From: an uncultured Methanosarcinales archaeon
GTDB lineage: Archaea; Nanobdellota; Nanobdellia; Woesearchaeales; JABIAG01
Reading direction: 5' to 3'
NCBI GenBank assembly: GCA_964544335.1
Contig: CAZJAJ010000002.1
Coordinates: forward strand, 3,013-67,012
DNA length: 64,000 nt
The notes beneath the pieces are model-generated. The model made no database searches. It had not been told where the DNA came from and worked only from the letters and a program-made list of their open reading frames with translations. The translations under genes and the position numbers were made by a program. Positions 11,814-63,076 of the stretch are shown piece after piece (the first letter of the stretch is position 1; each line of letters opens with the position of its first letter).

Positions 11814-14800
11814 TTGGCAAATAAGTCACTACACATTTTTGTTGCACTTTTTTGTTTACTTATTCTAGCAACGCCAGTACTTGCTGAGCGAACAGTAAAC
11901 TTTCAAGTATTTGAAGCAACAATAGATGCAAACAGAAATTTCATCCCATCATCAACACCAGTAAATGGCATTGATGCTTTTGGATTTGTGTGTGCAGATG
12001 CAGCATGTAGTGATTACACAACTCAATTACAAAGTTCTAGTTCTAATACCAATCTTATTACCGTAACCTATCCAACAACATTACAAACTGTTGATGGATA
12101 TGCTCATATCTTTGCAGATGACGACAATGAATACGTCACCTGGGCTCAACGAGCAGACTTCTGGGGGACAAACCCATCTGATCCACAAGGTCCTTACACA
12201 ATTTATCTATCAAAAGTAGAAGCATGCAGATCACCTATTGATTCCTTTGTGGTAATCAATGACGCACATCCAAATCAACCGGTACAGTTTGAAGTGAGTA
12301 CATCACTTGACGCAACCGTTTGGAGCGCAATTCAATTTGGTGGTCCAATTGGCTTTGAAGCACCGCAAATTCCTCAAAATTATGATGTGAAAACAGACAT
12401 TACACTTGAAATCATTGACCAAAATGGTAATGTGGTATATACAGAGACTGATACGCTTGATGTAGATTTTGATAATGCAGCAAGAGTGATGTTTGAGTGG
12501 ACACCTGACATTATTGGAAGATATGAGGCACGAGTGATCACATCGGTACCTGATAGTAAATGTGCAAGCGATGTTCCAGTAGAAGCAAGTAAAGAATTTT
12601 CCATCATTGGAGAAACAACCGATCTGTGCTATGCACTAGCAAACAGTCTCTCAGCACAGCCACTTGGACAATATCCTAACGAACCAGTAACAATTAGCTT
12701 TGAAACACTCTCTAATTACTTTGATGAACTAGGCAACCTTAACCCGCTCAACACATCAGCTACTTTATCTATTTACAAAGATGGCTTTTATGATGAAATA
12801 CAAATTGATGTGGCAGCAATTGACACAGAAACCTATGAAACAGTTATCGTTCCATATGCATTCCCTGAAGCTGGACTCTATAATATTACAGTAGATGCAA
12901 GAGCAGCATCTTGTCCTGCATCTGATAACACCTGGGATATTGAAACCATAGAATATCTTGTTGATGAAGAAATTATCATCGATCCTAATACTCCGCCAAC
13001 ACTCTTTGCACAAGATCTATTCTTTTCAGAATTTGATGGCATGCAAGAAGACATCTACAATCTAGAAGAATTTGCAGTTGATCCAGATCAAGACGTTGCA
13101 ACACTGAGTTATGAAATCACTAGTCAAACAGCAAGAGACATCGTAGATTGTAGCATTGACAGTAATAATAATCTTGATTGTAATGTGAAAACACCTGGTC
13201 AATCAGTATTAAACATGCGAGTAACTGATGACGAAGACGAATATGGAATTGATCTTATTACTGTAACTGTAGCAAATATTCCTGAATGCCAAGATGGTCT
13301 TGACAATGACAATGATGGTCTAACTGATCTTGACGATCCTGGATGTGCTGATGAAAATGATGATGACGAATCAGACGGCACTTCTCAATGTCAAGACAGC
13401 ATCGATAATGACAACGATGGTCTTGTAGATATGCAAGATCCTGGTTGCGATTCTCCTCAAGACAATGATGAGTCTGATGGCACCTCTCAATGCCAAGACG
13501 GCATCGATAATGACAATGACGGCCTTGTTGACATGCAAGATCCTGGTTGTGACACACCTCAAGACAACGACGAATCTGATGGCACTTCTCAATGTCAAGA
13601 CGGCATCGACAACGATGGTGACAACCTTGTTGACATGAATGATCCTGGTTGTGACACGCCTCAAGATAATAATGAATCAGATGCTACCTCTGCATGTCAA
13701 GATGGCATCGATAATGATAATGACGGTCTCGTTGACATGAACGATCCAGGTTGTACTGACCCAACTGATGATGATGAATATCACAACATTCCAATCACAC
13801 TTGATTTTTCAGCATCAACAACGCAAACACTTGCACCTGCTTTTGTAGAATTTACTTGCGGTGCAACTGGTGGCAACAGTGATGTATATGTGGCACTTAT
13901 TACAGACAGCAATCTCTTCTATGAGAATGGTGCAACACCATTTACTCTAGTTGCAAACACTACATACTCCATTCCTGGAATCTACACTGCAACATGTAAC
14001 GCAACTGAAGCCGATGGTGATTATGTGGAAGAAACAATAAACATCACTATTTTAACACCGCAATGCCAAGATGGTCTTGACAATGACAATGATGGTCTAA
14101 CTGATCTTGACGATCCTGGGTGTACTGATGAATTCGATAACGATGAATCTGATGGCACCACACAATGTCAAGATGGAGTAGATAATGACGCAGATGGTCT
14201 AATTGATCTTGATGATCCAGGTTGTAGCGGACCACTTGATGATGATGAATCTGATGCTACAACACAATGTCAAGATGGTATCGATAACGACAACGATGGT
14301 CTTGTTGACATGCAAGACCCAGGTTGTGACACACCTCAAGATGATAACGAATATCATAACATTCCAATCACACTTAATTATTCAGTATCAACAACACAAG
14401 CACTTCCACCAGTATTTGTAGAATTTACTTGTGGTGCAAATGGTGCAAATGATGATGTCTTTGCTGCAGTAAATACAGGAAATAATATTGAATACAGTAA
14501 TGGTGCAACTCCATTAGTGATTACAACAAGCACAACCTACACCGTTCCTGGAGTCTACACCACAACATGTAATGCAACTGAAGCTGATGGCGATAGTGCA
14601 AATGAATCAATCTTAATTACTATCTTAACACCACAATGTCAAGACGGTATCGATAACGATAACGACGGTCTAACTGATCTGGAAGATCCAGGATGTACTG
14701 ACGAATTCGATAACGATGAATCTGATGGTACAACACAATGCCAAGATGGTATAGACAATGACAACGATGGTCTTGTTGATATGCAAGATCCTGGTTGTGA

Positions 14801-17450
14801 CACACCACAAGATAATGATGAGTCAGATGGCACCTCTCAATGTCAAGATGGCATAGACAACGACTATGATGGTCTTGTTGACTATCCACAAGATCCTGGT
14901 TGCACATCACCTCAAGACGAAAGTGAACTACACACCCTTGCAGGAACACTTAATTTTACTCAAGTAAAAGTAATTATTTACAATAATTCATTTTTAACAG
15001 AAGAAATAATCCAAAGAGGAGATGTAGTTAATTTTGAACTAGGACCTCTTATCAGAACAGATGCATATGTAGAAAACACATTCCTTGCACTTGATTTTGA
15101 TCCTGTTGAAGTAAACTTTGAAATCCCAAGTACTTCATTTACAAGAACTGATGTTGATGAAATCATTGCAGGTGAAGAAGATGTATTCGGATTTAACTTT
15201 GCAGACGGTCTTGTACCTGGTCTACACGAAGTAATTCTTACACGAGAAGATGCAGTAGCACAAACCGGCCTTGGTGTTGAAGCTGAAGAATTTAGATTCT
15301 TTGTTAATGTAACAGAACCTGATGAATTCTTTGAAGTAGAATTAACAACTACGCCAACACAAGGAGTGGCTCCACTTACTATTCAAACAACCTGTTATAT
15401 CACATCAGGTAATGATGCACCGTTTGATGTATCTCTGACTGATGATGATGGGTTCACATATCAAACTGTGCTTAACTCACCATTTGATAATATAACACAA
15501 TCAATTACCTATACACAACCAGGTACCTACAATATTGAATGTGGAATGGTTGATGCAGATGGTGATGATAACAGCGATCAAACGGCAGTAACCGTCTATG
15601 CACCACAATGTAATGATGGTCTTGACAACGATAACGATGGTCTAACAGATCTTGACGATCCTGGTTGTATTGATGAATTCGATAACAACGAATCAGATGG
15701 CACTTCTCAATGTCAAGATGGCATTGATAATGACGGTGATAACCTCATTGACATGAATGATCCAGGTTGTGACACACCTCAAGATGACAATGAAACAAAC
15801 ATCATCGTAGACACAGGTGACCTGGAAATCCAATCTGTTGCAGTATATGTGAACAGCACCTCATCATTTATTTCAGAAAATGATCTTGTAAGAATTTCAC
15901 TTGACCAAAAAGATCTATGGCAAGATGTTAGAGTAATCAATACATACCAAACAACTCAACTCAACAACGTAACTGTTAATGCATACATTCTAAATACAGG
16001 TATCATGGCAGATGGTGATCAAAAGAATCTCTCAGGTCAAGAAAGCAGAGAATTCTATGTTGACTTTGATTTCAATACAGATCCAATCACTGCAGGAAAT
16101 TACACGGTTCTTATTGAAGCAACACACACCTCTGGTGCATTTGATGACTTCACATACGAACTTGAAATATACACACCAATTATCGTAATTGATCCACAAT
16201 GTAGTGATGGTCTTGATAACGATAACGACGGTCTAGTTGACTATCCACAAGATCCTGGCTGTGATTCAGAAACTGACGATGACGAATACAACGTAGTAAT
16301 CATTCCACAATGTGATGATGGTCTTGATAATGATAACGATGGATTAACTGATCTAGAAGATCCAGGTTGTATGAACTCAACTGATGATAGTGAATCAAAT
16401 AACTTTGATCTATTCATTGATAACGGGTACCTTACCACACAAAACATCTATGATGACGAAACAGTACTTATCAGATTTGAAACACACAGAATCCCATCAG
16501 AACATGTTGATGCATATGTTGATGTGGATGTAACTGTTGATGGCAATCCTATCTCAATTACCTCACTTCCATTCGACATGGAAACACGAGACTGGGGTAT
16601 TGGTGGACTTGGTCCATTTACTGCAGGAACACACACGCTACAAATTGTAACTGATCCAAGCAACGAGCACAACGAATCAAATGAAAACAATAATGTATTC
16701 ACATTTACATTTGACGTACTTCCTGCAATCACACCTACCACACAATGTGATGATGGTATTGACAATGATAACGATGGATTTGTCGATATGAATGATCCAG
16801 GCTGTGATTCGCCACAAGATAATGATGAATCTGATGATCCAGTAAATGAATCAATCGTATTCCTTAACACACCAACAGGTAGTGCATTTGTAGGCGTTGC
16901 ATATCTCTTTGATCTAGACACAGCACCAAGTGATGTAACTTTCACTCTGCTTGCAGCTCCAACAGGACTAAACGTTGATCAAGTAACAGGGCTCATTACC
17001 TGGACACCAAAAGAATCAGATCTTGGAAATCACTATGTGACTGTTCAAGCAGAAAAGAACGGTATAACTGCAACTAAGACATTTACCATTACCGTATTTA
17101 CCAATCCAAACAAAGCTCAGTCAAACACCGTAGAAGATCTTGACATCATGAGAATCAACTTTGTTAACGGAGAACAAGTAGATGCAGGTGATCAACTAGT
17201 GCTAAGCTTTAACCTTGAGAACAATGGTGAAGTAAGCTACGATAACATGAAAATTACCGTTACTATTTACGATCTTGGTATTACAAGAAGTGTAGGCTCT
17301 TTTGACCTACATACAAACGATGACATTACAAAAACACTTCACCTTGACGTGCCATACTACGCCCCAGCAGGGGAGTATCCAATCAGAGTAACACTCTCTG
17401 CAGATGGCATAAACAAGCGTGTAGTACATAGATATTTCGACGTGAAATGA
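11814..17450 (+). CDS. Large secreted surface protein with 16 Cys/Asp-rich putative Ca-binding repeats and PKD/CARDB/Ig-like domains
   Basis: Signal peptide; repeats CxDGxDNDxDGxxDxxDPGC; CARDB-like DPSNEHNESNENNN; Ig-like APTGLNVDQVTGLITWTP; many N-x-S/T sequons. Confidence 0.85.
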   Translation: MANKSLHIFVALFCLLILATPVLAERTVNFQVFEATIDANRNFIPSSTPVNGIDAFGFVCADAACSDYTTQLQSSSSNTNLITVTYPTTLQTVDGYAHIFADDDNEYVTWAQRADFWGTNPSDPQGPYTIYLSKVEACRSPIDSFVVINDAHPNQPVQFEVSTSLDATVWSAIQFGGPIGFEAPQIPQNYDVKTDITLEIIDQNGNVVYTETDTLDVDFDNAARVMFEWTPDIIGRYEARVITSVPDSKCASDVPVEASKEFSIIGETTDLCYALANSLSAQPLGQYPNEPVTISFETLSNYFDELGNLNPLNTSATLSIYKDGFYDEIQIDVAAIDTETYETVIVPYAFPEAGLYNITVDARAASCPASDNTWDIETIEYLVDEEIIIDPNTPPTLFAQDLFFSEFDGMQEDIYNLEEFAVDPDQDVATLSYEITSQTARDIVDCSIDSNNNLDCNVKTPGQSVLNMRVTDDEDEYGIDLITVTVANIPECQDGLDNDNDGLTDLDDPGCADENDDDESDGTSQCQDSIDNDNDGLVDMQDPGCDSPQDNDESDGTSQCQDGIDNDNDGLVDMQDPGCDTPQDNDESDGTSQCQDGIDNDGDNLVDMNDPGCDTPQDNNESDATSACQDGIDNDNDGLVDMNDPGCTDPTDDDEYHNIPITLDFSASTTQTLAPAFVEFTCGATGGNSDVYVALITDSNLFYENGATPFTLVANTTYSIPGIYTATCNATEADGDYVEETINITILTPQCQDGLDNDNDGLTDLDDPGCTDEFDNDESDGTTQCQDGVDNDADGLIDLDDPGCSGPLDDDESDATTQCQDGIDNDNDGLVDMQDPGCDTPQDDNEYHNIPITLNYSVSTTQALPPVFVEFTCGANGANDDVFAAVNTGNNIEYSNGATPLVITTSTTYTVPGVYTTTCNATEADGDSANESILITILTPQCQDGIDNDNDGLTDLEDPGCTDEFDNDESDGTTQCQDGIDNDNDGLVDMQDPGCDTPQDNDESDGTSQCQDGIDNDYDGLVDYPQDPGCTSPQDESELHTLAGTLNFTQVKVIIYNNSFLTEEIIQRGDVVNFELGPLIRTDAYVENTFLALDFDPVEVNFEIPSTSFTRTDVDEIIAGEEDVFGFNFADGLVPGLHEVILTREDAVAQTGLGVEAEEFRFFVNVTEPDEFFEVELTTTPTQGVAPLTIQTTCYITSGNDAPFDVSLTDDDGFTYQTVLNSPFDNITQSITYTQPGTYNIECGMVDADGDDNSDQTAVTVYAPQCNDGLDNDNDGLTDLDDPGCIDEFDNNESDGTSQCQDGIDNDGDNLIDMNDPGCDTPQDDNETNIIVDTGDLEIQSVAVYVNSTSSFISENDLVRISLDQKDLWQDVRVINTYQTTQLNNVTVNAYILNTGIMADGDQKNLSGQESREFYVDFDFNTDPITAGNYTVLIEATHTSGAFDDFTYELEIYTPIIVIDPQCSDGLDNDNDGLVDYPQDPGCDSETDDDEYNVVIIPQCDDGLDNDNDGLTDLEDPGCMNSTDDSESNNFDLFIDNGYLTTQNIYDDETVLIRFETHRIPSEHVDAYVDVDVTVDGNPISITSLPFDMETRDWGIGGLGPFTAGTHTLQIVTDPSNEHNESNENNNVFTFTFDVLPAITPTTQCDDGIDNDNDGFVDMNDPGCDSPQDNDESDDPVNESIVFLNTPTGSAFVGVAYLFDLDTAPSDVTFTLLAAPTGLNVDQVTGLITWTPKESDLGNHYVTVQAEKNGITATKTFTITVFTNPNKAQSNTVEDLDIMRINFVNGEQVDAGDQLVLSFNLENNGEVSYDNMKITVTIYDLGITRSVGSFDLHTNDDITKTLHLDVPYYAPAGEYPIRVTLSADGINKRVVHRYFDVK
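13283..16835 (+). repeat. Intragenic ~102-bp (34-aa) repeat, 16 copies in blocks of 5, 3, 3, 2, 2 and 1
   Basis: Recurrent DNA motif like caatgtcaagatggtatcgataacgacaacgatggtcttgttgacatgcaagatcctggttgt; copies counted in the translation. Confidence 0.9.
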
Positions 17451-23271: not shown

Positions 23272-23382
23272 AATGGTGGGGACGCCAGGATTCCGTACGA
23301 GTGTAACGAGTCGGTGCAAAAAATCAAAGATTTTTGAGCATGTTCAAATCCTGTAATAAAGAATGGTGGGGACGCCAGGATT
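23272..23382. repeat. 21-bp direct repeat of the tRNA-Trp 3' end flanking a hairpin-containing insert
   Basis: aatggtggggacgccaggatt at 23272-23292 and 23362-23382. Confidence 0.9.
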
Positions 23383-23472
23383 TGAACCCGGATCTGCTGG
23401 TATCTTCACAGGCTACGCCTCAGCGCTCCAATGTCTGGAGCCAGCCATTCTGCCAAGTTATACTACGTCCCC
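23364..23472 (-). tRNA. tRNA-Trp(CCA) with 33-nt intron (23402-23434) at position 37/38; CCA end encoded
   Basis: Acceptor GGGGACG/CGTCCCC, anticodon stem GCTGG/CCAGC, loop CT-CCA-G, T-loop TTCAAAT; TTATAAA ~28 nt upstream. Confidence 0.95.
23402..23434 (-). ncRNA. Putative intron-encoded minimal box C/D guide for C34 of tRNA-Trp
   Basis: ACA-TTGGAGC-G-CTGA-GGCGTAGCC-T-GTGAAGA-T; the guide is antisense to the anticodon loop and D+5 pairs with C34. Confidence 0.65.
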
Positions 23473-32856: not shown

Positions 32857-33378
32857 ATGGATGTTGTAAAACCAATTGCACGATTTGCAGGAGTTATTCT
32901 AGTTAATATTGACTTTCGCTTTCTCTTTCAAGATAGAAAAGAAAAATCAAAACATGGTGAGCAAGTAACACTCTTTAGTGGTAGAGTAGAAAATGGTGAA
33001 ACTGATGAAGAATGTATGTTTAGAGAAGGAGGAGAAGAATTTGGTATGTCTAATTTAGAATTACTTCCATTTGATAGTTCTTTTATTCCACCTGGATATC
33101 ATATCAATGGTAAACCCTATAGGAATGTGCACATGACAACCTATTTGCATATGAGAATGGTAAACGTGGATGAAATGATTTTTCCAGAAGGTGATGTGCC
33201 GCTATTGGTATCACAACATGAACTAGCAGATCTCATTCCAATTACATATCCATCAAATAGACCAACAATAAAAAAGATGCAAGAAATTAACCCTTTAGCA
33301 CTCTTGGACCAGTATCACTATCTTCAACCACATATCCTAACGCCGCAATCTCATCACGCAATGTATCGGCACGGGTAA
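32857..33378 (+). CDS. Nudix hydrolase
   Basis: Nudix box GRVENGETDEECMFREGGEEFG. Confidence 0.8.
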   Translation: MDVVKPIARFAGVILVNIDFRFLFQDRKEKSKHGEQVTLFSGRVENGETDEECMFREGGEEFGMSNLELLPFDSSFIPPGYHINGKPYRNVHMTTYLHMRMVNVDEMIFPEGDVPLLVSQHELADLIPITYPSNRPTIKKMQEINPLALLDQYHYLQPHILTPQSHHAMYRHG

Positions 33379-34675
33379 AGTCTTTTTGTGCACGTGCATC
33401 TTCACGTTCTTGTACTTTTTTCATAATTTCTTCAGGAACATCAACAACCGTTTCTTCAAAATCATTCATCCCAAGACCAAGCACATCATCAAAACGAAGC
33501 AACACTTCAAGCTTCTTCTTATCACCCATGTCAGAATCAATGACTTCCCACATCACAGCAAGTGCTTGTGGCATATTAATATCATCAGAAATAGCTTTCT
33601 CAAACTTACCAAAGTAAAGTAGCGCATCCCCAGAATCATCATCTGATGTTCTATAAGAAAGCACTTTCTTCTTAAGCTTTTCAAATGCATTCTTTGCACT
33701 ATCCAGTGCTTCAAACGTAAAGTTAAGCACCATGCGATAATGTGCAGTCATACAAAAGTATCGATAATGCAGTGGATCATATCCTTTCTCTTCAAGTGTC
33801 TGCACCGTAAGAAAATTTCCTTCAGATTTTGCCATTTTCCCACCATCAACTTTCAAGAAAGCACTATGCATCCAGAAATTCACCCAAGGGTGATTCCCAA
33901 AGCAGCATTCAGATTGTGCGATCTCATTCGTATGATGTACAGGAATATGATCAGTACCACCTGTGTGAATATCAATGTGCTCTCCAAGAAGAGCATGTGA
34001 CATAGCACTACATTCAATGTGCCATCCCGGATATCCAGTTCCCCAAGGACTATCCCATTTCATTTCTTGATCATCAAATTTAGATTTAGTAAACCATAAT
34101 ACAAAATCACGTCTATTTTTCTTATTACTGTCCTCTTCAACACGTGCTTGCATATCTTCCTCAGGAGGAAGTTTTGCAAGTTCAGTATAAGAAGTAAATT
34201 TGGATGTATCAAAATACACATTCCCGCCAGCAGTATACGTAAATCCTTTTTCTTCAAGTGTTGTAATCATATCAATCATGTCTTGAATGTGATCAGTAGC
34301 CTTAGGCATAGATTCAGGAACAAGCATGTTCAGTTTTTCAACATCCTTCATGAATGCATTGGTATAAAATGATGCAATATCCCAAACCGTTTTACCTTCA
34401 CGGCGAGCGCCTTTGAGCATCTTATCCTCGCCCTCATCAGCATCACTCACCAAGTGCCCAACATCCGTGATATTCATCACATCCTTTACTTCAAAACCCT
34501 TGTATGCAAGCACTCTCTTGAGAATATCTGCAAAAATAAATGATCTATGATTTCCAATATGTGCATAATTATACACTGTAGGCCCACAGGAGTATACCGT
34601 TACCGTCTCAGATAGTGGTACAAATTTCTCAACTGCTCGTGTGCGCGTATTATATAGTGTCAAATCAATAGTCAT
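33287..34675 (-). CDS. cysS: Cysteine--tRNA ligase
   Basis: YSCGPTVY, HIGN, PGWHIECSAM, DIHTGG, HHTNE, KMAKS; true start probably ATG 34675 (MTIDLTLYNT), with a TATA at ~34697-34704. Confidence 0.96.
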   Translation of the reverse strand: MTIDLTLYNTRTRAVEKFVPLSETVTVYSCGPTVYNYAHIGNHRSFIFADILKRVLAYKGFEVKDVMNITDVGHLVSDADEGEDKMLKGARREGKTVWDIASFYTNAFMKDVEKLNMLVPESMPKATDHIQDMIDMITTLEEKGFTYTAGGNVYFDTSKFTSYTELAKLPPEEDMQARVEEDSNKKNRRDFVLWFTKSKFDDQEMKWDSPWGTGYPGWHIECSAMSHALLGEHIDIHTGGTDHIPVHHTNEIAQSECCFGNHPWVNFWMHSAFLKVDGGKMAKSEGNFLTVQTLEEKGYDPLHYRYFCMTAHYRMVLNFTFEALDSAKNAFEKLKKKVLSYRTSDDDSGDALLYFGKFEKAISDDINMPQALAVMWEVIDSDMGDKKKLEVLLRFDDVLGLGMNDFEETVVDVPEEIMKKVQEREDARAQKDFTRADTLRDEIAALGYVVEDSDTGPRVLKG

Positions 34676-34718
34676 ACTCCAAAGAGGCCCCTTCGATTTA
34701 TATATTTTGTTTAGATAG

Positions 34719-34736
34719 AAACAAAAAAAGAAAAAA
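34719..34736 (-). terminator. Oligo-T terminator after leuA
   Basis: TTTTTTCTTTTTTTGTTT on the minus strand just after the leuA stop. Confidence 0.55.
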
Positions 34737-34751
34737 TAGCTCCTATCGACC

Positions 34752-36269
34752 CTACTCATCCATTCGATGTAATCTAATATATTCCAGACGATTACATCCA
34801 TCCACAAAGGCCTCTGCAGCACTCGTAACCACATCAGAAGACTGAGATCGTCCCACAACCTCATATCTTCCATCACTCATTACCACCTGTGAACGACCTT
34901 CTGCTTTAGATCCACTTCCTTGTGAACGTACAAGAAAATCAACAATATGGTACTCCCTGCCAATCACAGATCTAATTCCTTGCACAAGTGCATCTATCTG
35001 TCCATTTCCTGCGGAGTATGCTGTTGTATTACTTCCATTTGCATGCATGCACACATATGCACCAAATCCACCATTGATCACGGGATGAAATTGTTCAAGT
35101 GCATACACGGCATCAATACCATCTCCATGGACTGATCGAACAACATCTGCATCATCAATTTCTTTTTGCTCATCAGCAATTGCAAAAAATCGCTGAGCAC
35201 ATGATGCAAAATTCTCATCACTTACTTCAATACCAAGAGCAGCATATTTTCCACGAAGTGCATGTGAACCTGATCGTGCACCAAACGTAAGTACGCTCTT
35301 CACACCATATGCATCAGGATTCATGATCTCATATGTAGATGCATCTTTAATCATGCCATCTTGATGTATCCCTGCTTCATGCGCAAACGCATTCTTTCCC
35401 ACAATAGCTTTATTGGGCTGTGGATACACGCCCGTAATTGCACTCACAAGTCGACTCGTTGGACCAATCTCTTTTGTATTAACACTACAATACACACCAC
35501 CTGGTGATCGCTCAGTAATAATGGCAACCATTTCTTCAAGTGATGTATTCCCTGCTCGCTCTCCAATCCCATTAACCGTAACTTCAATTTGGCGAGCACC
35601 TGCCATCACTGCAGCAAGTGTAGTTGCTGTTGCAAGACCCAAGTCATTATGATTGTGTACAGAAAAAATAGCATCAAGTCCATCCTTTCGCACACTACTA
35701 ATCACTTGAGAAAATAGTTCATAGCACTCATGTGGCATCAAGTACCCAACAGTATCGGGCAAATTAATAGTGCTTGCACCAGCACGAATCGCTTCCTTAA
35801 CCACAGCAGTAGTATATGAAATATCAGAACGACCAAAATCTTCACAAGAAAATTCTACATCATCTGTAAACTCTCTTGCATATCTAATGGCATTCACTGC
35901 TTGCTCAAAAACCCAATCTCTATCTTTTCTAAACTTACCACTGATGTGGTTGTCACTGGTTGCAATAAAGGTATGAATTCTTCCCTTCGCAGCAGGTGCA
36001 ATTGCTTTTGCAGCAGCTGCAATGTCTCCCTTCACTGCGCGTGAAAGAGAACAAATAGTAGGACCACCATTCCCTCCAACTTCTCGTGCAATTCGTGCAA
36101 TCGATTCAGCATCTCCAACTGATGAAGCAGCAAAACCTGCCTCAATAATATCTACTCCTAATGTTGCTAATTGCCTAGCAATTGCAATTTTCTCATCACC
36201 AAACATATGAAATCCAGATGCCTGCTCTCCATCTCGTAAGGTGGTATCAAATATTCTAATTTGCTTCAT
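34752..36269 (-). CDS. leuA: 2-isopropylmalate synthase
   Basis: DTTLRDGEQ, HNHNDLGLA, GIGERAGN, AHEAGIHQDG and C-terminal regulatory domain (GNGQIDAL). Confidence 0.92.
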   Translation of the reverse strand: MKQIRIFDTTLRDGEQASGFHMFGDEKIAIARQLATLGVDIIEAGFAASSVGDAESIARIAREVGGNGGPTICSLSRAVKGDIAAAAKAIAPAAKGRIHTFIATSDNHISGKFRKDRDWVFEQAVNAIRYAREFTDDVEFSCEDFGRSDISYTTAVVKEAIRAGASTINLPDTVGYLMPHECYELFSQVISSVRKDGLDAIFSVHNHNDLGLATATTLAAVMAGARQIEVTVNGIGERAGNTSLEEMVAIITERSPGGVYCSVNTKEIGPTSRLVSAITGVYPQPNKAIVGKNAFAHEAGIHQDGMIKDASTYEIMNPDAYGVKSVLTFGARSGSHALRGKYAALGIEVSDENFASCAQRFFAIADEQKEIDDADVVRSVHGDGIDAVYALEQFHPVINGGFGAYVCMHANGSNTTAYSAGNGQIDALVQGIRSVIGREYHIVDFLVRSQGSGSKAEGRSQVVMSDGRYEVVGRSQSSDVVTSAAEAFVDGCNRLEYIRLHRMDE

Positions 36270-36290
36270 TATACTATCTCCTATAATGAA
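36265..36290 (-). promoter_or_regulatory. 9-bp hairpin enclosing the leuA RBS and start codon
   Basis: TTCATTATA-GGAGATAG-TATAATGAA, perfect inverted repeat with the ATG in the 3' arm. Confidence 0.55.
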
Positions 36291-36334: not shown

Positions 36335-36424
36335 CTATCTCAGCAGCAGTAGAAGAAGGAGCAGAAGCGTAGAACTAGATGCATGGGTTTGTACAGTTTT
36401 TTTTGGAATATATGTTTGTTTCAT
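36335..36424 (-). CDS. Leucine-rich leader peptide 2 (29 aa: MKQTYIPKKTVQTHASSSTLLLLLLLLLR)
   Basis: AAGGAGG SD upstream of the ATG; nine consecutive CTN Leu codons at 36341-36367; stop 65 nt before leuA. Confidence 0.8.
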   Translation of the reverse strand: MKQTYIPKKTVQTHASSSTLLLLLLLLLR

Positions 36425-36472
36425 TTGTTATGTCCTCCTTCAATTACGATTGAATGAATAGTAATATAGAAA

Positions 36473-36532
36473 TTAACAGAGCAGCAGAGCTAGTAATGAA
36501 AGACTCATTCTAGCAGGTGTTGCATATCTCAT
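36473..36532 (-). CDS. Leucine-rich leader peptide 1 (19 aa: MRYATPARMSLSLLALLLC)
   Basis: 6 Leu in the last 9 sense codons; ATG 22 nt downstream of TTTATATA, consistent with a leaderless start. Confidence 0.65.
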   Translation of the reverse strand: MRYATPARMSLSLLALLLC

Positions 36533-36554
36533 ACACACAAGAAAACATACAGAA

Positions 36555-36562
36555 TATATAAA
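36555..36562 (-). promoter_or_regulatory. TATA box for the leader-peptide/leuA transcript
   Basis: TTTATATA directly after the stop of the U32 gene. Confidence 0.6.
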
Positions 36563-54858: not shown

Positions 54859-56217
54859 ATGGAATTACAGTTTTTTGGTGCCGCAGGCTTTGTTACCGGA
54901 AGTTGTCACATGCTTCGTGTTGCAGGTAAAACTATTCTCGTAGATTGTGGTATGTTTCAAGGAAAAGAATCCAAAAAAAACTATGACGAATTTAGATTCA
55001 ATCCAAAAGACATTGACGCAGTACTCTTAACACACGCACACCTAGATCATTGTGGTCTGCTTCCAAAACTCGTAAAAGAAGGATTTAGAGGACCAATTTA
55101 TGCAACAGCTGCAACATGCGATCTCTCAAAAGTCGTCATGGAAGATTCAGGACATATTCATGAATTTGAAAATAAGTGGGATAACAGAAGACTCAAACGT
55201 GAGGGAAAACCACTTCGAAAACCACTCTACACAGCAAAAGATGCAACAAAAACATTCAAATTCCTAACACCTATTCACTACAATCAAACCATCAAAGTAT
55301 TTCCTGGAATCACTGCCGTTTACAGAGACGCAGGTCACATTCTGGGAAGCGCTGCAGTAGAAGTATTTGCAGATGGTAAAAAAATTGTCTTCTCAGGAGA
55401 CATTGGACAATGGAATGCACCCATCATCGACGATCCTAAATTAATTAGAGAAGCAGATTATGTCGTTGTAGAATCAACCTATGGTGATAGAGTACACGAA
55501 AACAAATCTGAAAAAACAAAACTCCTTGCACAACACATTCGAAGAATCTACAAAGAAGGTGGAAAACTCTTAATTCCATCATTTGCAATTGAGCGAACAC
55601 AAGAATTAATCTATCACTTAAACGAACTTGTAGAAGCAGGTAAAATACCACACATCCCTGTATTTGTTGACTCGCCTATGGCAAATAGAGCAACACAAGT
55701 CTTCATGAAACACACAGAAAACTATGATGAAGAAGCACGAAACATGCTTGCTCATGGGGACGAACCATTCAAGTTTCACAATCTTACCTATATCAAATCA
55801 TCAAATGAATCAAAAGCACTCAATGGTTTTCCAGGACCATGCGTGATTATCGCATCATCAGGAATGTGTACGGGTGGAAGAATAAAACACCATCTCAAAC
55901 ATCATTTACCACATCCAGACACCACAGTGCTCTTTATTGGCTATCAAGCATACGGAACTCTTGGACGAAAAATAAAAGATGGTGCAAAACGTGTACGTAT
56001 CTATGGAGATAATATTCCTGTAAGAGGATCAATTTTCTCAGTTGGTGGATTCTCAGGTCACGCAGATCAACCACAACTACTCAAATGGCTCAACGGCTTT
56101 GTACAAAAACCACAGAACATCTTCATCGTCCATGGAGAACCACAAGGCGCACAAGGCCTTAAGAAAGCATACGGCAAAGGCCACATTGCAAAACTGTATG
56201 AGACAGTGCGGTTGTAG
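54859..56217 (+). CDS. MBL-fold beta-CASP ribonuclease (no KH domains)
   Basis: GAA..VTGS, THAHLDH, AGHILGS, SGD, ESTYG, FSGHAD, VHGE. Confidence 0.92.
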   Translation: MELQFFGAAGFVTGSCHMLRVAGKTILVDCGMFQGKESKKNYDEFRFNPKDIDAVLLTHAHLDHCGLLPKLVKEGFRGPIYATAATCDLSKVVMEDSGHIHEFENKWDNRRLKREGKPLRKPLYTAKDATKTFKFLTPIHYNQTIKVFPGITAVYRDAGHILGSAAVEVFADGKKIVFSGDIGQWNAPIIDDPKLIREADYVVVESTYGDRVHENKSEKTKLLAQHIRRIYKEGGKLLIPSFAIERTQELIYHLNELVEAGKIPHIPVFVDSPMANRATQVFMKHTENYDEEARNMLAHGDEPFKFHNLTYIKSSNESKALNGFPGPCVIIASSGMCTGGRIKHHLKHHLPHPDTTVLFIGYQAYGTLGRKIKDGAKRVRIYGDNIPVRGSIFSVGGFSGHADQPQLLKWLNGFVQKPQNIFIVHGEPQGAQGLKKAYGKGHIAKLYETVRL

Positions 56218-60197: not shown

Positions 60198-60306
60198 GCA
60201 CCGATAGTCTAATGGTTATGATTCCGGCCTTCCATAACAGAAACGAGTTTCTGGACTCATCTGTTGATGAGAGCCGGTGGTCCGGGTTCGAATCCCGGTC
60301 GGTGCA
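60198..60306 (+). tRNA. tRNA-Gly(TCC) with 37-nt intron (60235-60271) at 37/38
   Basis: Acceptor GCACCGA/TCGGTGC, anticodon stem CCGGC/GCCGG, loop CT-TCC-A, GTTCGAATC; BHB-like junction with AACAGA/TCTGTT helix; TTTATAAA 24 nt upstream. Confidence 0.93.
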
Positions 60307-62945: not shown

Positions 62946-63076
62946 TGGCGGTGGCGGGATTTGAACGCGCGACCTCCAGATTTCACTGGTAGTTTTGGTA
63001 TTCCTCATCGGCTCTAAAGCCTCGGCACTCATACCTTATGAGTCTGGCGCAATAAACCAGGCTATGCTACACCGCC
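62946..63076 (-). tRNA. tRNA-Met(CAT), probably elongator, with 55-nt intron (62982-63036)
   Basis: Acceptor GGCGGTG/CACCGCC (G1-C72, not the initiator A1-U72), anticodon stem CCAGA/TCTGG, loop CT-CAT-A, T-loop TTCAAAT. Confidence 0.9.
62982..63036 (-). ncRNA. Putative intron-encoded minimal box C/D guide for C34 of tRNA-Met
   Basis: AGG-TATGAGT-G-CCGA-GGCTTTAGAGCC-G-ATGAGGA...; the guide is antisense to ACTCATA and D+5 pairs with C34. Confidence 0.65.

Follow-up and report, generated by a model that had tools for sequence, protein, structure and literature searches.

In bacteria, attenuation by leader peptides is a textbook mechanism and needs coupled transcription and translation; whether an archaeon can sense amino-acid supply in a comparable way is the question raised by a leuA locus on contig CAZJAJ010000002.1 of an uncultured archaeon (the source genome, G000; genomes are labelled G and leuA or ilvB loci L, each with a number). 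The window, the whole stretch of 64,000 nucleotides (nt) analysed here, carries upstream of leuA two short open reading frames (ORFs), uORF1 and uORF2, with Leu-rich ends. A first-pass annotation of the sequence had read them as tandem leaders. The features it described, namely a TATA box, uORF1, a Shine-Dalgarno (SD) sequence, uORF2 with nine Leu codons drawn from all four CTN codons, and leuA, were all found on the minus strand where it had placed them (Table 1). Comparison with related genomes makes it likely that the leuA leader represents a conserved cis-regulatory family in one order of small-genome archaea and that it is an attenuator-like leader sensing Leu and Val supply by ribosome stalling. 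The family is apparently a real and undescribed archaeal variant of leader-peptide attenuation.

Of 401 genomes from this order, 57 carry leuA (E up to 1e-60); 53 of these were examined, four flagged as unpublished being left out. After removal of two loci that had no upstream sequence (L045 and L068), 51 leuA loci were assessable. A leader was defined as a short ORF of 15-50 amino acids (aa) from an ATG with at least six Leu, Val or Ile (L/V/I) among its last 10 residues. The first-pass annotation had staked its proposal in advance on Leu-rich leaders recurring upstream of orthologous leuA, and such an ORF was found at 48 of the 51 loci, the relatives having one leader each. The loci without a leader were L059, L015, where the upstream gene abuts leuA, and L008, which has only 265 nt of upstream sequence and whose congener L062 has its leader on the far side of an intervening ORF. 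Between leader and leuA, a further ORF of about 80-120 aa without Pfam match was seen at L014 (1131-1487), at L008 (3-245) and in the matching stretch of L062. The last 13 codons of the family leaders comprise 354 Leu, 115 Val and 25 Ile codons and few other hydrophobic residues, so that the hydrophobic run is about 9-13 residues long, and the tract reaches the stop codon. The N-terminal parts of the leaders are variable, and the residue order of the tails (L-L-V-L...) is fairly conserved within subfamilies. In a phylum-wide sample, leuA was present in 16 of 401 genomes, all 16 belonging to the same order, and a broader contig scan yielded leuA loci of bacteria alone.

Such ORFs could have arisen by chance, or could be part of a bacterial attenuator carried by contaminating or chimeric DNA; a chimeric contig was among the conditions under which the first-pass annotation would have withdrawn its proposal. 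The nearest named LeuA homologues are indeed bacterial, LeuA being 41-48% identical to many bacterial LeuA proteins, and Leu leaders are frequent at bacterial leuA genes. A fixed scan (up to 400 nt upstream of leuA, at least eight L/V/I in the last 10 residues) matched 39 of the 51 loci, against 1 of 51 on the reverse complement and 4 of 1020 shuffled sequences. The same scan gave no match in 76 bacterial leuA upstream regions, where ordinary leaders with 3-5 Leu were visible. Within G000, both strands of the 965,829 bp contain only 29 short ORFs ending in at least 8 Leu, Val or Ile among 10 residues, and uORF2 is the only one of them with a run of nine Leu; of the 135 short ORFs placed like leaderless genes relative to their promoter, uORF1 has the strongest single-residue bias. 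G000 (six contigs, rated 100% complete, 38% G+C) has a small-subunit rRNA scoring 1419 bits with the archaeal model and 1097 bits with the bacterial model. Fibrillarin and Nop56/58 are encoded on the same contig, 9 kb from the leader locus, and the window also encodes STT3 and tRNA-guanine transglycosylase, archaeal hallmark genes flanking the locus on both sides; in addition, three tRNA genes of the window (see below) presumably carry inserts. The host is archaeal and the leader stretch is not a bacterial contaminant. Chance or a bacterial origin is contradicted by the genome-wide ORF counts, by the reverse-complement and shuffle scan, by the folding-energy controls and the archaeal promoter geometry given below, by the flanking hallmark genes and by the occurrence of the element in about 50 genomes of the same order. 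We regard either as extremely improbable.

The composition of the leader tail follows the content of the operon. Leaders with at least two Val preceded a leuA-ilvB pair in 30 of 30 cases (IlvB being a thiamine pyrophosphate enzyme by Pfam), and ilvB was never the next gene in the 17 cases with a Leu-only leader, including L030, which has no Val. In this Leu-only class leuA was followed by leuB, leuC, ilvE-leuC, leuS, cysS or unrelated genes. IlvB-type genes were present in 61 of the 401 genomes of the order, and 10 of 23 assessable stand-alone ilvB-type genes had a leader with at least 7 L/V/I among 10 residues, dominated by Val. One further stand-alone ilvB leader (L209) had 6 of 10 and a TATA box at 30 nt, and most of the stand-alone ilvB leaders show the TATA spacing and the hairpin after the stop codon described below. 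Mean contents of the last 13 residues, computed by hand from per-locus counts, were L 8.5, V 0.1, I 0.4 for leuA alone (n = 17), L 7.0, V 3.7, I 0.7 for leuA-ilvB (n = 30) and L 4.1, V 5.2, I 0.9 for ilvB alone (n = 11, including L209 with 6 of 10). In two genomes, G030 and G241, the leuA leader is Leu-only and the ilvB leader Val-rich, and this within-genome contrast is immune to shared ancestry.

A tail that follows the operon is as predicted for a sensor of cognate tRNA charging, not for a membrane micro-protein. Hydrophobic micro-proteins with a function of their own, or conservation for some other reason without sensing of tRNA charging, would suit the hydrophobic tails of the ORFs and the residue order shared within subfamilies. 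The run of 9-13 residues is nevertheless nearly pure Leu/Val and too short to span a membrane, the N-terminal parts vary, and the composition tracks the downstream enzyme even within one genome, which leaves this explanation very improbable. The earlier proposal of Leu-tRNA sensing holds as to the conserved Leu-rich leader and fails as to Leu alone, the family appearing to read both Leu and Val. Leaders of the same design with His or Thr codons were found in 0 of 5 large relatives each, and none was found in G000.

At three of the loci named above, L008 (G012), L062 (G215) and L014 (G030), a leucyl-tRNA synthetase gene lies directly or nearly downstream of leuA, and leuS may be under the same leucine-sensing leader there. 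An order-wide pattern search without a stop-codon requirement was uninformative, matching N-terminal hydrophobic segments of ordinary leaderless genes, and a stricter pattern recovered only one of five known leaders. The one extra match of the stricter pattern (L187; G013:C3:93709-93796, minus strand) has leaderless geometry and is rich in Leu, Phe and Cys; terminated by a double stop, this short ORF is not followed by any obvious gene and is probably spurious.

The position of the leaders relative to the promoter was examined with the TATA motif TTTAWATA, allowing up to one mismatch in the family leaders and requiring an exact match in the genome-wide count of G000. In 40 leaders of the relatives the motif starts 29-33 nt ahead of the leader ATG, most often at 31 nt. 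The structure tests excluded L043 (N run), and L192 was dropped from the analysis (contig cut). In the structure set, 39 of 47 leaders had a TATA box at 29-33 nt and 4 of 47 an SD-like sequence, and random positions had a TATA box at the leader distance in 3% of cases. Among long ORFs of G000, exact TATA matches peak at 29-30 nt before the ATG, with 68 in the 28-34 nt bin versus 5.6 per other bin. The genes with TATA at 29/30 nt (68) and the genes with SD (105) are almost exclusive sets, sharing one gene. uORF1, which the first-pass annotation had called apparently leaderless under an archaeal promoter, agrees with this geometry, its TATA box standing 30 nt before the ATG. In view of the TATA spacing, the scarcity of SD sequences and the leaderless geometry in G000, the most plausible reading is that a leaderless mRNA begins with the leader ORF. 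An SD-like sequence precedes leuA at 29 of 47 loci, and a second TATA box 29-33 nt before leuA was found at 9 of 47 loci, all in one subfamily; therefore, leuA normally shares the promoter of the leader, and a general second promoter for leuA was rejected. At these nine loci (L016, L035, L041, L048, L049, L050, L057, L060 and L067) the second TATA-like box is TTTATAAA, with an SD-like GGTGA between the box and the leuA ATG, and the box may be an internal promoter in that subfamily.

The leader stop codon is abutted by a hairpin, termed H2, which begins within 3 nt (-3 to +3) of the stop codon's end at 45 of 46 loci and has a median end at +28. The 45-nt window after the stop codon folds at -10.9 kcal/mol, compared with -4.7 kcal/mol in 164 control windows from the same non-coding regions, and its z score against dinucleotide shuffles was below -2 at 30 of 47 loci. 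In the alignment of one subfamily, 93% of the H2 cells were paired and 4 of 12 pairs showed compensatory changes; the covariation score was reached by 0 of 500 shuffles, and controls with slid positions paired at 32-65%. The helix sequences are wholly different between subfamilies, and because of this RNAalifold on a MAFFT alignment of the post-stop region returned no pairs, a limitation of the alignment.

In G000 the arrangement is unusual in having two Leu-rich ORFs. The tail of uORF1 (36502-36479) has six Leu among the final 10 residues and resembles the leader tail of the nearest relative, G233 (L030). At L030 a second, SD-led ORF of 20 aa, rich in Lys and Asn, begins like uORF2 and has no Leu tract. 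It begins 55 nt before leuA and ends 8 nt into the gene, and this overlap with the leuA start suggests translational coupling. By its promoter geometry and its G233-like tail, uORF1 is thus read as the orthologue of the conserved leader and uORF2 as a derived, extra leader peculiar to G000, the more striking nine-Leu ORF being the derived element and the less striking one the conserved element. The double leader and the two-stage sensor of the first-pass annotation therefore do not extend to the relatives.

In the mechanism that we consider probable, the TATA box would drive a leaderless mRNA whose first cistron is an ORF of 15-30 codons, the final 10-13 or so being Leu and/or Val codons followed by the stop codon and H2, with leuA, leuA-ilvB or ilvB on the same transcript. 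Ribosomes would stall in the tract when charged tRNA-Leu or tRNA-Val is scarce, and stalling would raise expression of the operon. Stalling is assigned to the ON state because this makes biosynthetic sense and because Val codons appear only where ilvB is controlled; placing Val codons in a leader before ilvB would be pointless unless stalling increased expression. While the ribosome occupies the first two thirds of the tract, H2 would stay folded, and once it reaches the final codons or the stop codon it would have to melt H2. From these positions, H2 would most simply be an ON-state structure, like region 2:3 or the antiterminator of bacterial attenuators. In G000, the leaderless uORF1 has lost a clear H2, and the SD-led uORF2 carries the nine-Leu tract and the hairpin.

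Several observations weigh against this mechanism. First, pairing energies gave no mutually exclusive antiterminator and terminator pair among the loci tested. The 3′ arm of H2 paired with downstream sequence at -5.05 kcal/mol within its own locus and at -5.04 kcal/mol in mismatched loci, giving no locus-specific partner, and own and mismatched energies were equal for the tract with the H2 arms and for the N-terminal codons with the H2 arms. Likewise, neither the tract, the N-terminal codons nor either arm of H2 gave a locus-specific signal when paired with the ribosome-binding site or the downstream spacer. An intra-ORF hairpin between 5′ codons and the start of the tract (H1), convincing by eye, failed the controls: the ORF minimum free energy was -13.5 kcal/mol, versus -11.3 after synonymous recoding and -12.5 after same-codon permutation, with 10 of 46 and 4 of 46 loci standing out, respectively, and on alignment A2 58% of the cells were paired, a value equalled by 100 of 500 shuffles and by a slide of -3 (59%). 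Second, a general oligo-T run is absent, at least five T occurring in 9 of 46 spacers. A T run of at least five within 30 nt of H2 was found at 7 of 46 loci, the T fraction after H2 being 0.33 versus 0.25 in spacers; a CATTGTT-like terminator after H2 was rejected, with the motif at 10 of 46 loci only, and a consensus terminator scan in G000 gave no matches. Third, the G000 copy of the system is degenerate or atypical. uORF1 has no hairpin after its stop codon beyond shuffles (z about 0). The uORF2 hairpin, the G000 counterpart of H2, begins further upstream than H2 in the family and is less stable; its window folds at -9.2 kcal/mol versus -4.6 kcal/mol for shuffles (z -1.96). Moreover, leuB, leuC, ilvB and ilvE were undetected in G000 by tblastn with IlvB, LeuB, LeuC and two IlvE-type proteins from relatives, and leuA looks like an orphan there; unrelated genes after leuA were also seen in several relatives with Leu-only leaders. 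Fourth, the relatives are not independent of one another, and all leuA-ilvB loci may belong to one clade. Finally, the direction of regulation is one that we infer, and the sign would be reversed if H2 were a terminator and, on a simple kinetic view, were masked by a coupled ribosome.

With neither a terminator partner nor an oligo-T run, a factor-dependent effector is proposed, in which melting of H2 would expose the nascent RNA to premature termination or cleavage by a factor of the aCPSF1/FttA type. This is the weakest step of the mechanism, and we put it forward tentatively, by analogy. An effector that dispenses with termination would be mRNA stabilisation, in which stalled or queued ribosomes on the leaderless ORF shield the 5′ end from 5′-to-3′ decay, with no structural switch. 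ermC-type 5′ stabilisers in bacteria are a precedent for such protection. The leader does appear to lie at the extreme 5′ end, no alternative structures were found and a beta-CASP ribonuclease gene is present in the window; stabilisation nevertheless gives no role to H2 or to its exact placement at the stop codon, and we consider it unlikely.

Translational attenuation of the mycobacterial type would place the decision at the leuA ribosome-binding site (RBS): the unoccupied CU-rich Leu/Val tract would pair with the purine-rich SD of leuA, and a stalled ribosome would free it. The architecture, a leaderless small ORF (sORF) with a codon tract at its 3′ end, is the same in the available part of the mycobacterial report (bioRxiv 10.1101/834739), and tract-RBS duplexes are fairly stable, averaging -10.5 kcal/mol and reaching -11.6 to -13.9 kcal/mol in G000. 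Mismatched loci gave practically the same mean (-10.2 kcal/mol), however, and the G000 duplexes do not stand out from shuffled tracts (fractions 0.05-0.12). Spacer length varies between 45 and 386 nt, some spacers contain a further ORF, control extends to several genes at once, and the hairpin abutting the stop codon is left unexplained. We therefore judge this mechanism improbable. Given the spacer lengths and the joint control of several genes, we prefer a mechanism in which the decision falls close to H2 and acts on the RNA, by the factor-dependent termination or cleavage proposed above.

Known systems resemble the family in part. No relevant Rfam 15 match was obtained in the window at the gathering score or at E up to 10, or in the loci of 20 relatives at E up to 1. 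No leader-peptide attenuator in archaea was found in the literature searched, the passages available concerning bacteria or archaeal small ORFs generally, and the earlier remark that such control is poorly documented in archaea therefore holds. The enterobacterial leu, ilvBN and ilvGMEDA attenuators, the leu leaders of which form the Rfam family Leu_leader, are alike in having a short ORF with a run of cognate Leu/Val codons before leuA or ilv, a stop codon beside an RNA hairpin whose folding is decided by ribosome position, and a leader composition that matches the pathway. Unlike them, the archaeal family has an archaeal TATA promoter, a leaderless start and a longer tract (about 10-13 codons) up to the stop codon, and it has no hairpin-plus-U-run terminator, no antiterminator/terminator alternative and no Rfam match. 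The favoured working model for the archaeal effector follows the logic of mgtL and tnaC, Rho-dependent leader-peptide attenuators in which ribosome position gates access of the termination factor without an intrinsic terminator; the archaeal factor, which would be aCPSF1/FttA, is wholly a matter of inference.

Leaderless leaders are also known in actinobacteria. The ilvBNC attenuator of Corynebacterium glutamicum was reportedly described by Morbach et al. in 2000, its leader peptide being synthesised in the absence of a ribosome-binding site, and this system and the actinobacterial leu/ilv leaders are said to be bacterial three-hairpin terminator systems, unlike the archaeal family. The portion available of a report on actinobacterial leu/ilv leaders (PMC1262725) shows the same leaderless branched-chain amino-acid leader peptide before ilvB or leuA as seen here. 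As far as the accessible text describes them, the mycobacterial polycysteine sORFs are leaderless first cistrons with a 3′ cognate-codon tract, and stalling on them controls the downstream biosynthetic genes (bioRxiv 10.1101/834739). They share the leaderless, 3′-terminal-tract design with the archaeal family, but they belong to another domain of life and serve another amino acid, and their tract pairs with the downstream SD, whereas in the archaea tract-SD pairing is not locus-specific and a hairpin abutting the stop codon is conserved instead.

Table 1. Features of the leuA leader locus in G000 (positions in the window).
Feature	Position	Strand	Remark
Archaeal TATA box of the leader promoter (TTTATATA)	36555..36562	-	Starts 30 nt before the uORF1 ATG
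uORF1, 19 aa + stop	36473..36532	-	Presumed leaderless leader peptide; read as orthologue of the order-wide leader
Shine-Dalgarno sequence AAGGAGG of uORF2	36434..36440	-	9 nt before the uORF2 ATG
uORF2, 29 aa + stop	36335..36424	-	Additional leader with an SD, peculiar to G000
Nine consecutive Leu codons in uORF2	36341..36367	-	All four CTN codons used
Hairpin, 8 bp, 4-nt loop	36324..36343	-	Overlaps the end of uORF2 (last Leu codon, Arg codon, stop)
SD-like sequence AGGAG of leuA	36278..36282	-	
leuA, 2-isopropylmalate synthase type	34752..36269	-	Gene under presumed control; Pfam HMGL-like 4e-85, HCS_D2, LeuA_dimer
cysS, cysteinyl-tRNA synthetase	33287..34876	-	Next gene on the same strand; Pfam tRNA-synt_1e 5e-97

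The uORF1 frame runs from the ATG at 36532 to the stop codon at 36475-36473, and in the ORF listing it starts earlier, with a GTG at 36538. leuA begins at the ATG at 36269, 65 nt after the uORF2 stop. cysS is possibly co-transcribed with leuA. Read from its GTG, the longest cysS frame shares 125 nt with the 3′ end of leuA; as the Pfam match begins only at residue 90, the true cysS start is probably downstream of the listed GTG. The gene upstream of the leader region encodes a U32 peptidase. Elsewhere in the window, three tRNA genes of 106-131 nt (23367-23472, minus; 60198-60306, plus; 62946-63076, minus) match the Rfam tRNA model end to end and are not reported by ARAGORN; they presumably carry introns or inserts. 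The beta-CASP ribonuclease (54859-56217, plus) is a 452-aa beta-CASP/RMMBL protein with no visible KH domains, and bears on ideas of 5′-3′ decay or of termination. An ORF of 1878 aa lies at 11814-17450 (plus), with neighbouring ORFs having FixG_C/CARDB-like Ig folds. Outside the locus, G000 contains an identical 54-aa short ORF with a TATA box at leaderless distance at C1:3002-3166 and at C1:9461-9625, about 6.5 kb apart, which points to a repeated segment.

Evidence for archaeal transcription-translation coupling is still scarce, according to the part available of a 2025 perspective (PMC13681488). The leaderless start, the tract running to the stop codon, the single hairpin abutting that stop and the lack of a terminator point to an effector different from the bacterial one. 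The family might be the first natural ribosome-mediated attenuator in archaea, with H2 gating termination of the aCPSF1/FttA type and with three codon flavours (leuA, leuA-ilvB and ilvB), a reading that we hold to be possible but doubtful. If it is true, archaeal transcription-translation coupling serves regulation, and a termination factor replaces the intrinsic terminator. A codon-specific leader at leuA or ilvB in many archaeal families would constitute a natural, compact reporter, which could test whether and how archaeal ribosomes communicate with RNA polymerase or with the machinery of mRNA decay and termination. Taken together, the leaders suggest that some small-genome archaea regulate their branched-chain amino-acid genes by supply, which bears on the self-sufficiency of these organisms.

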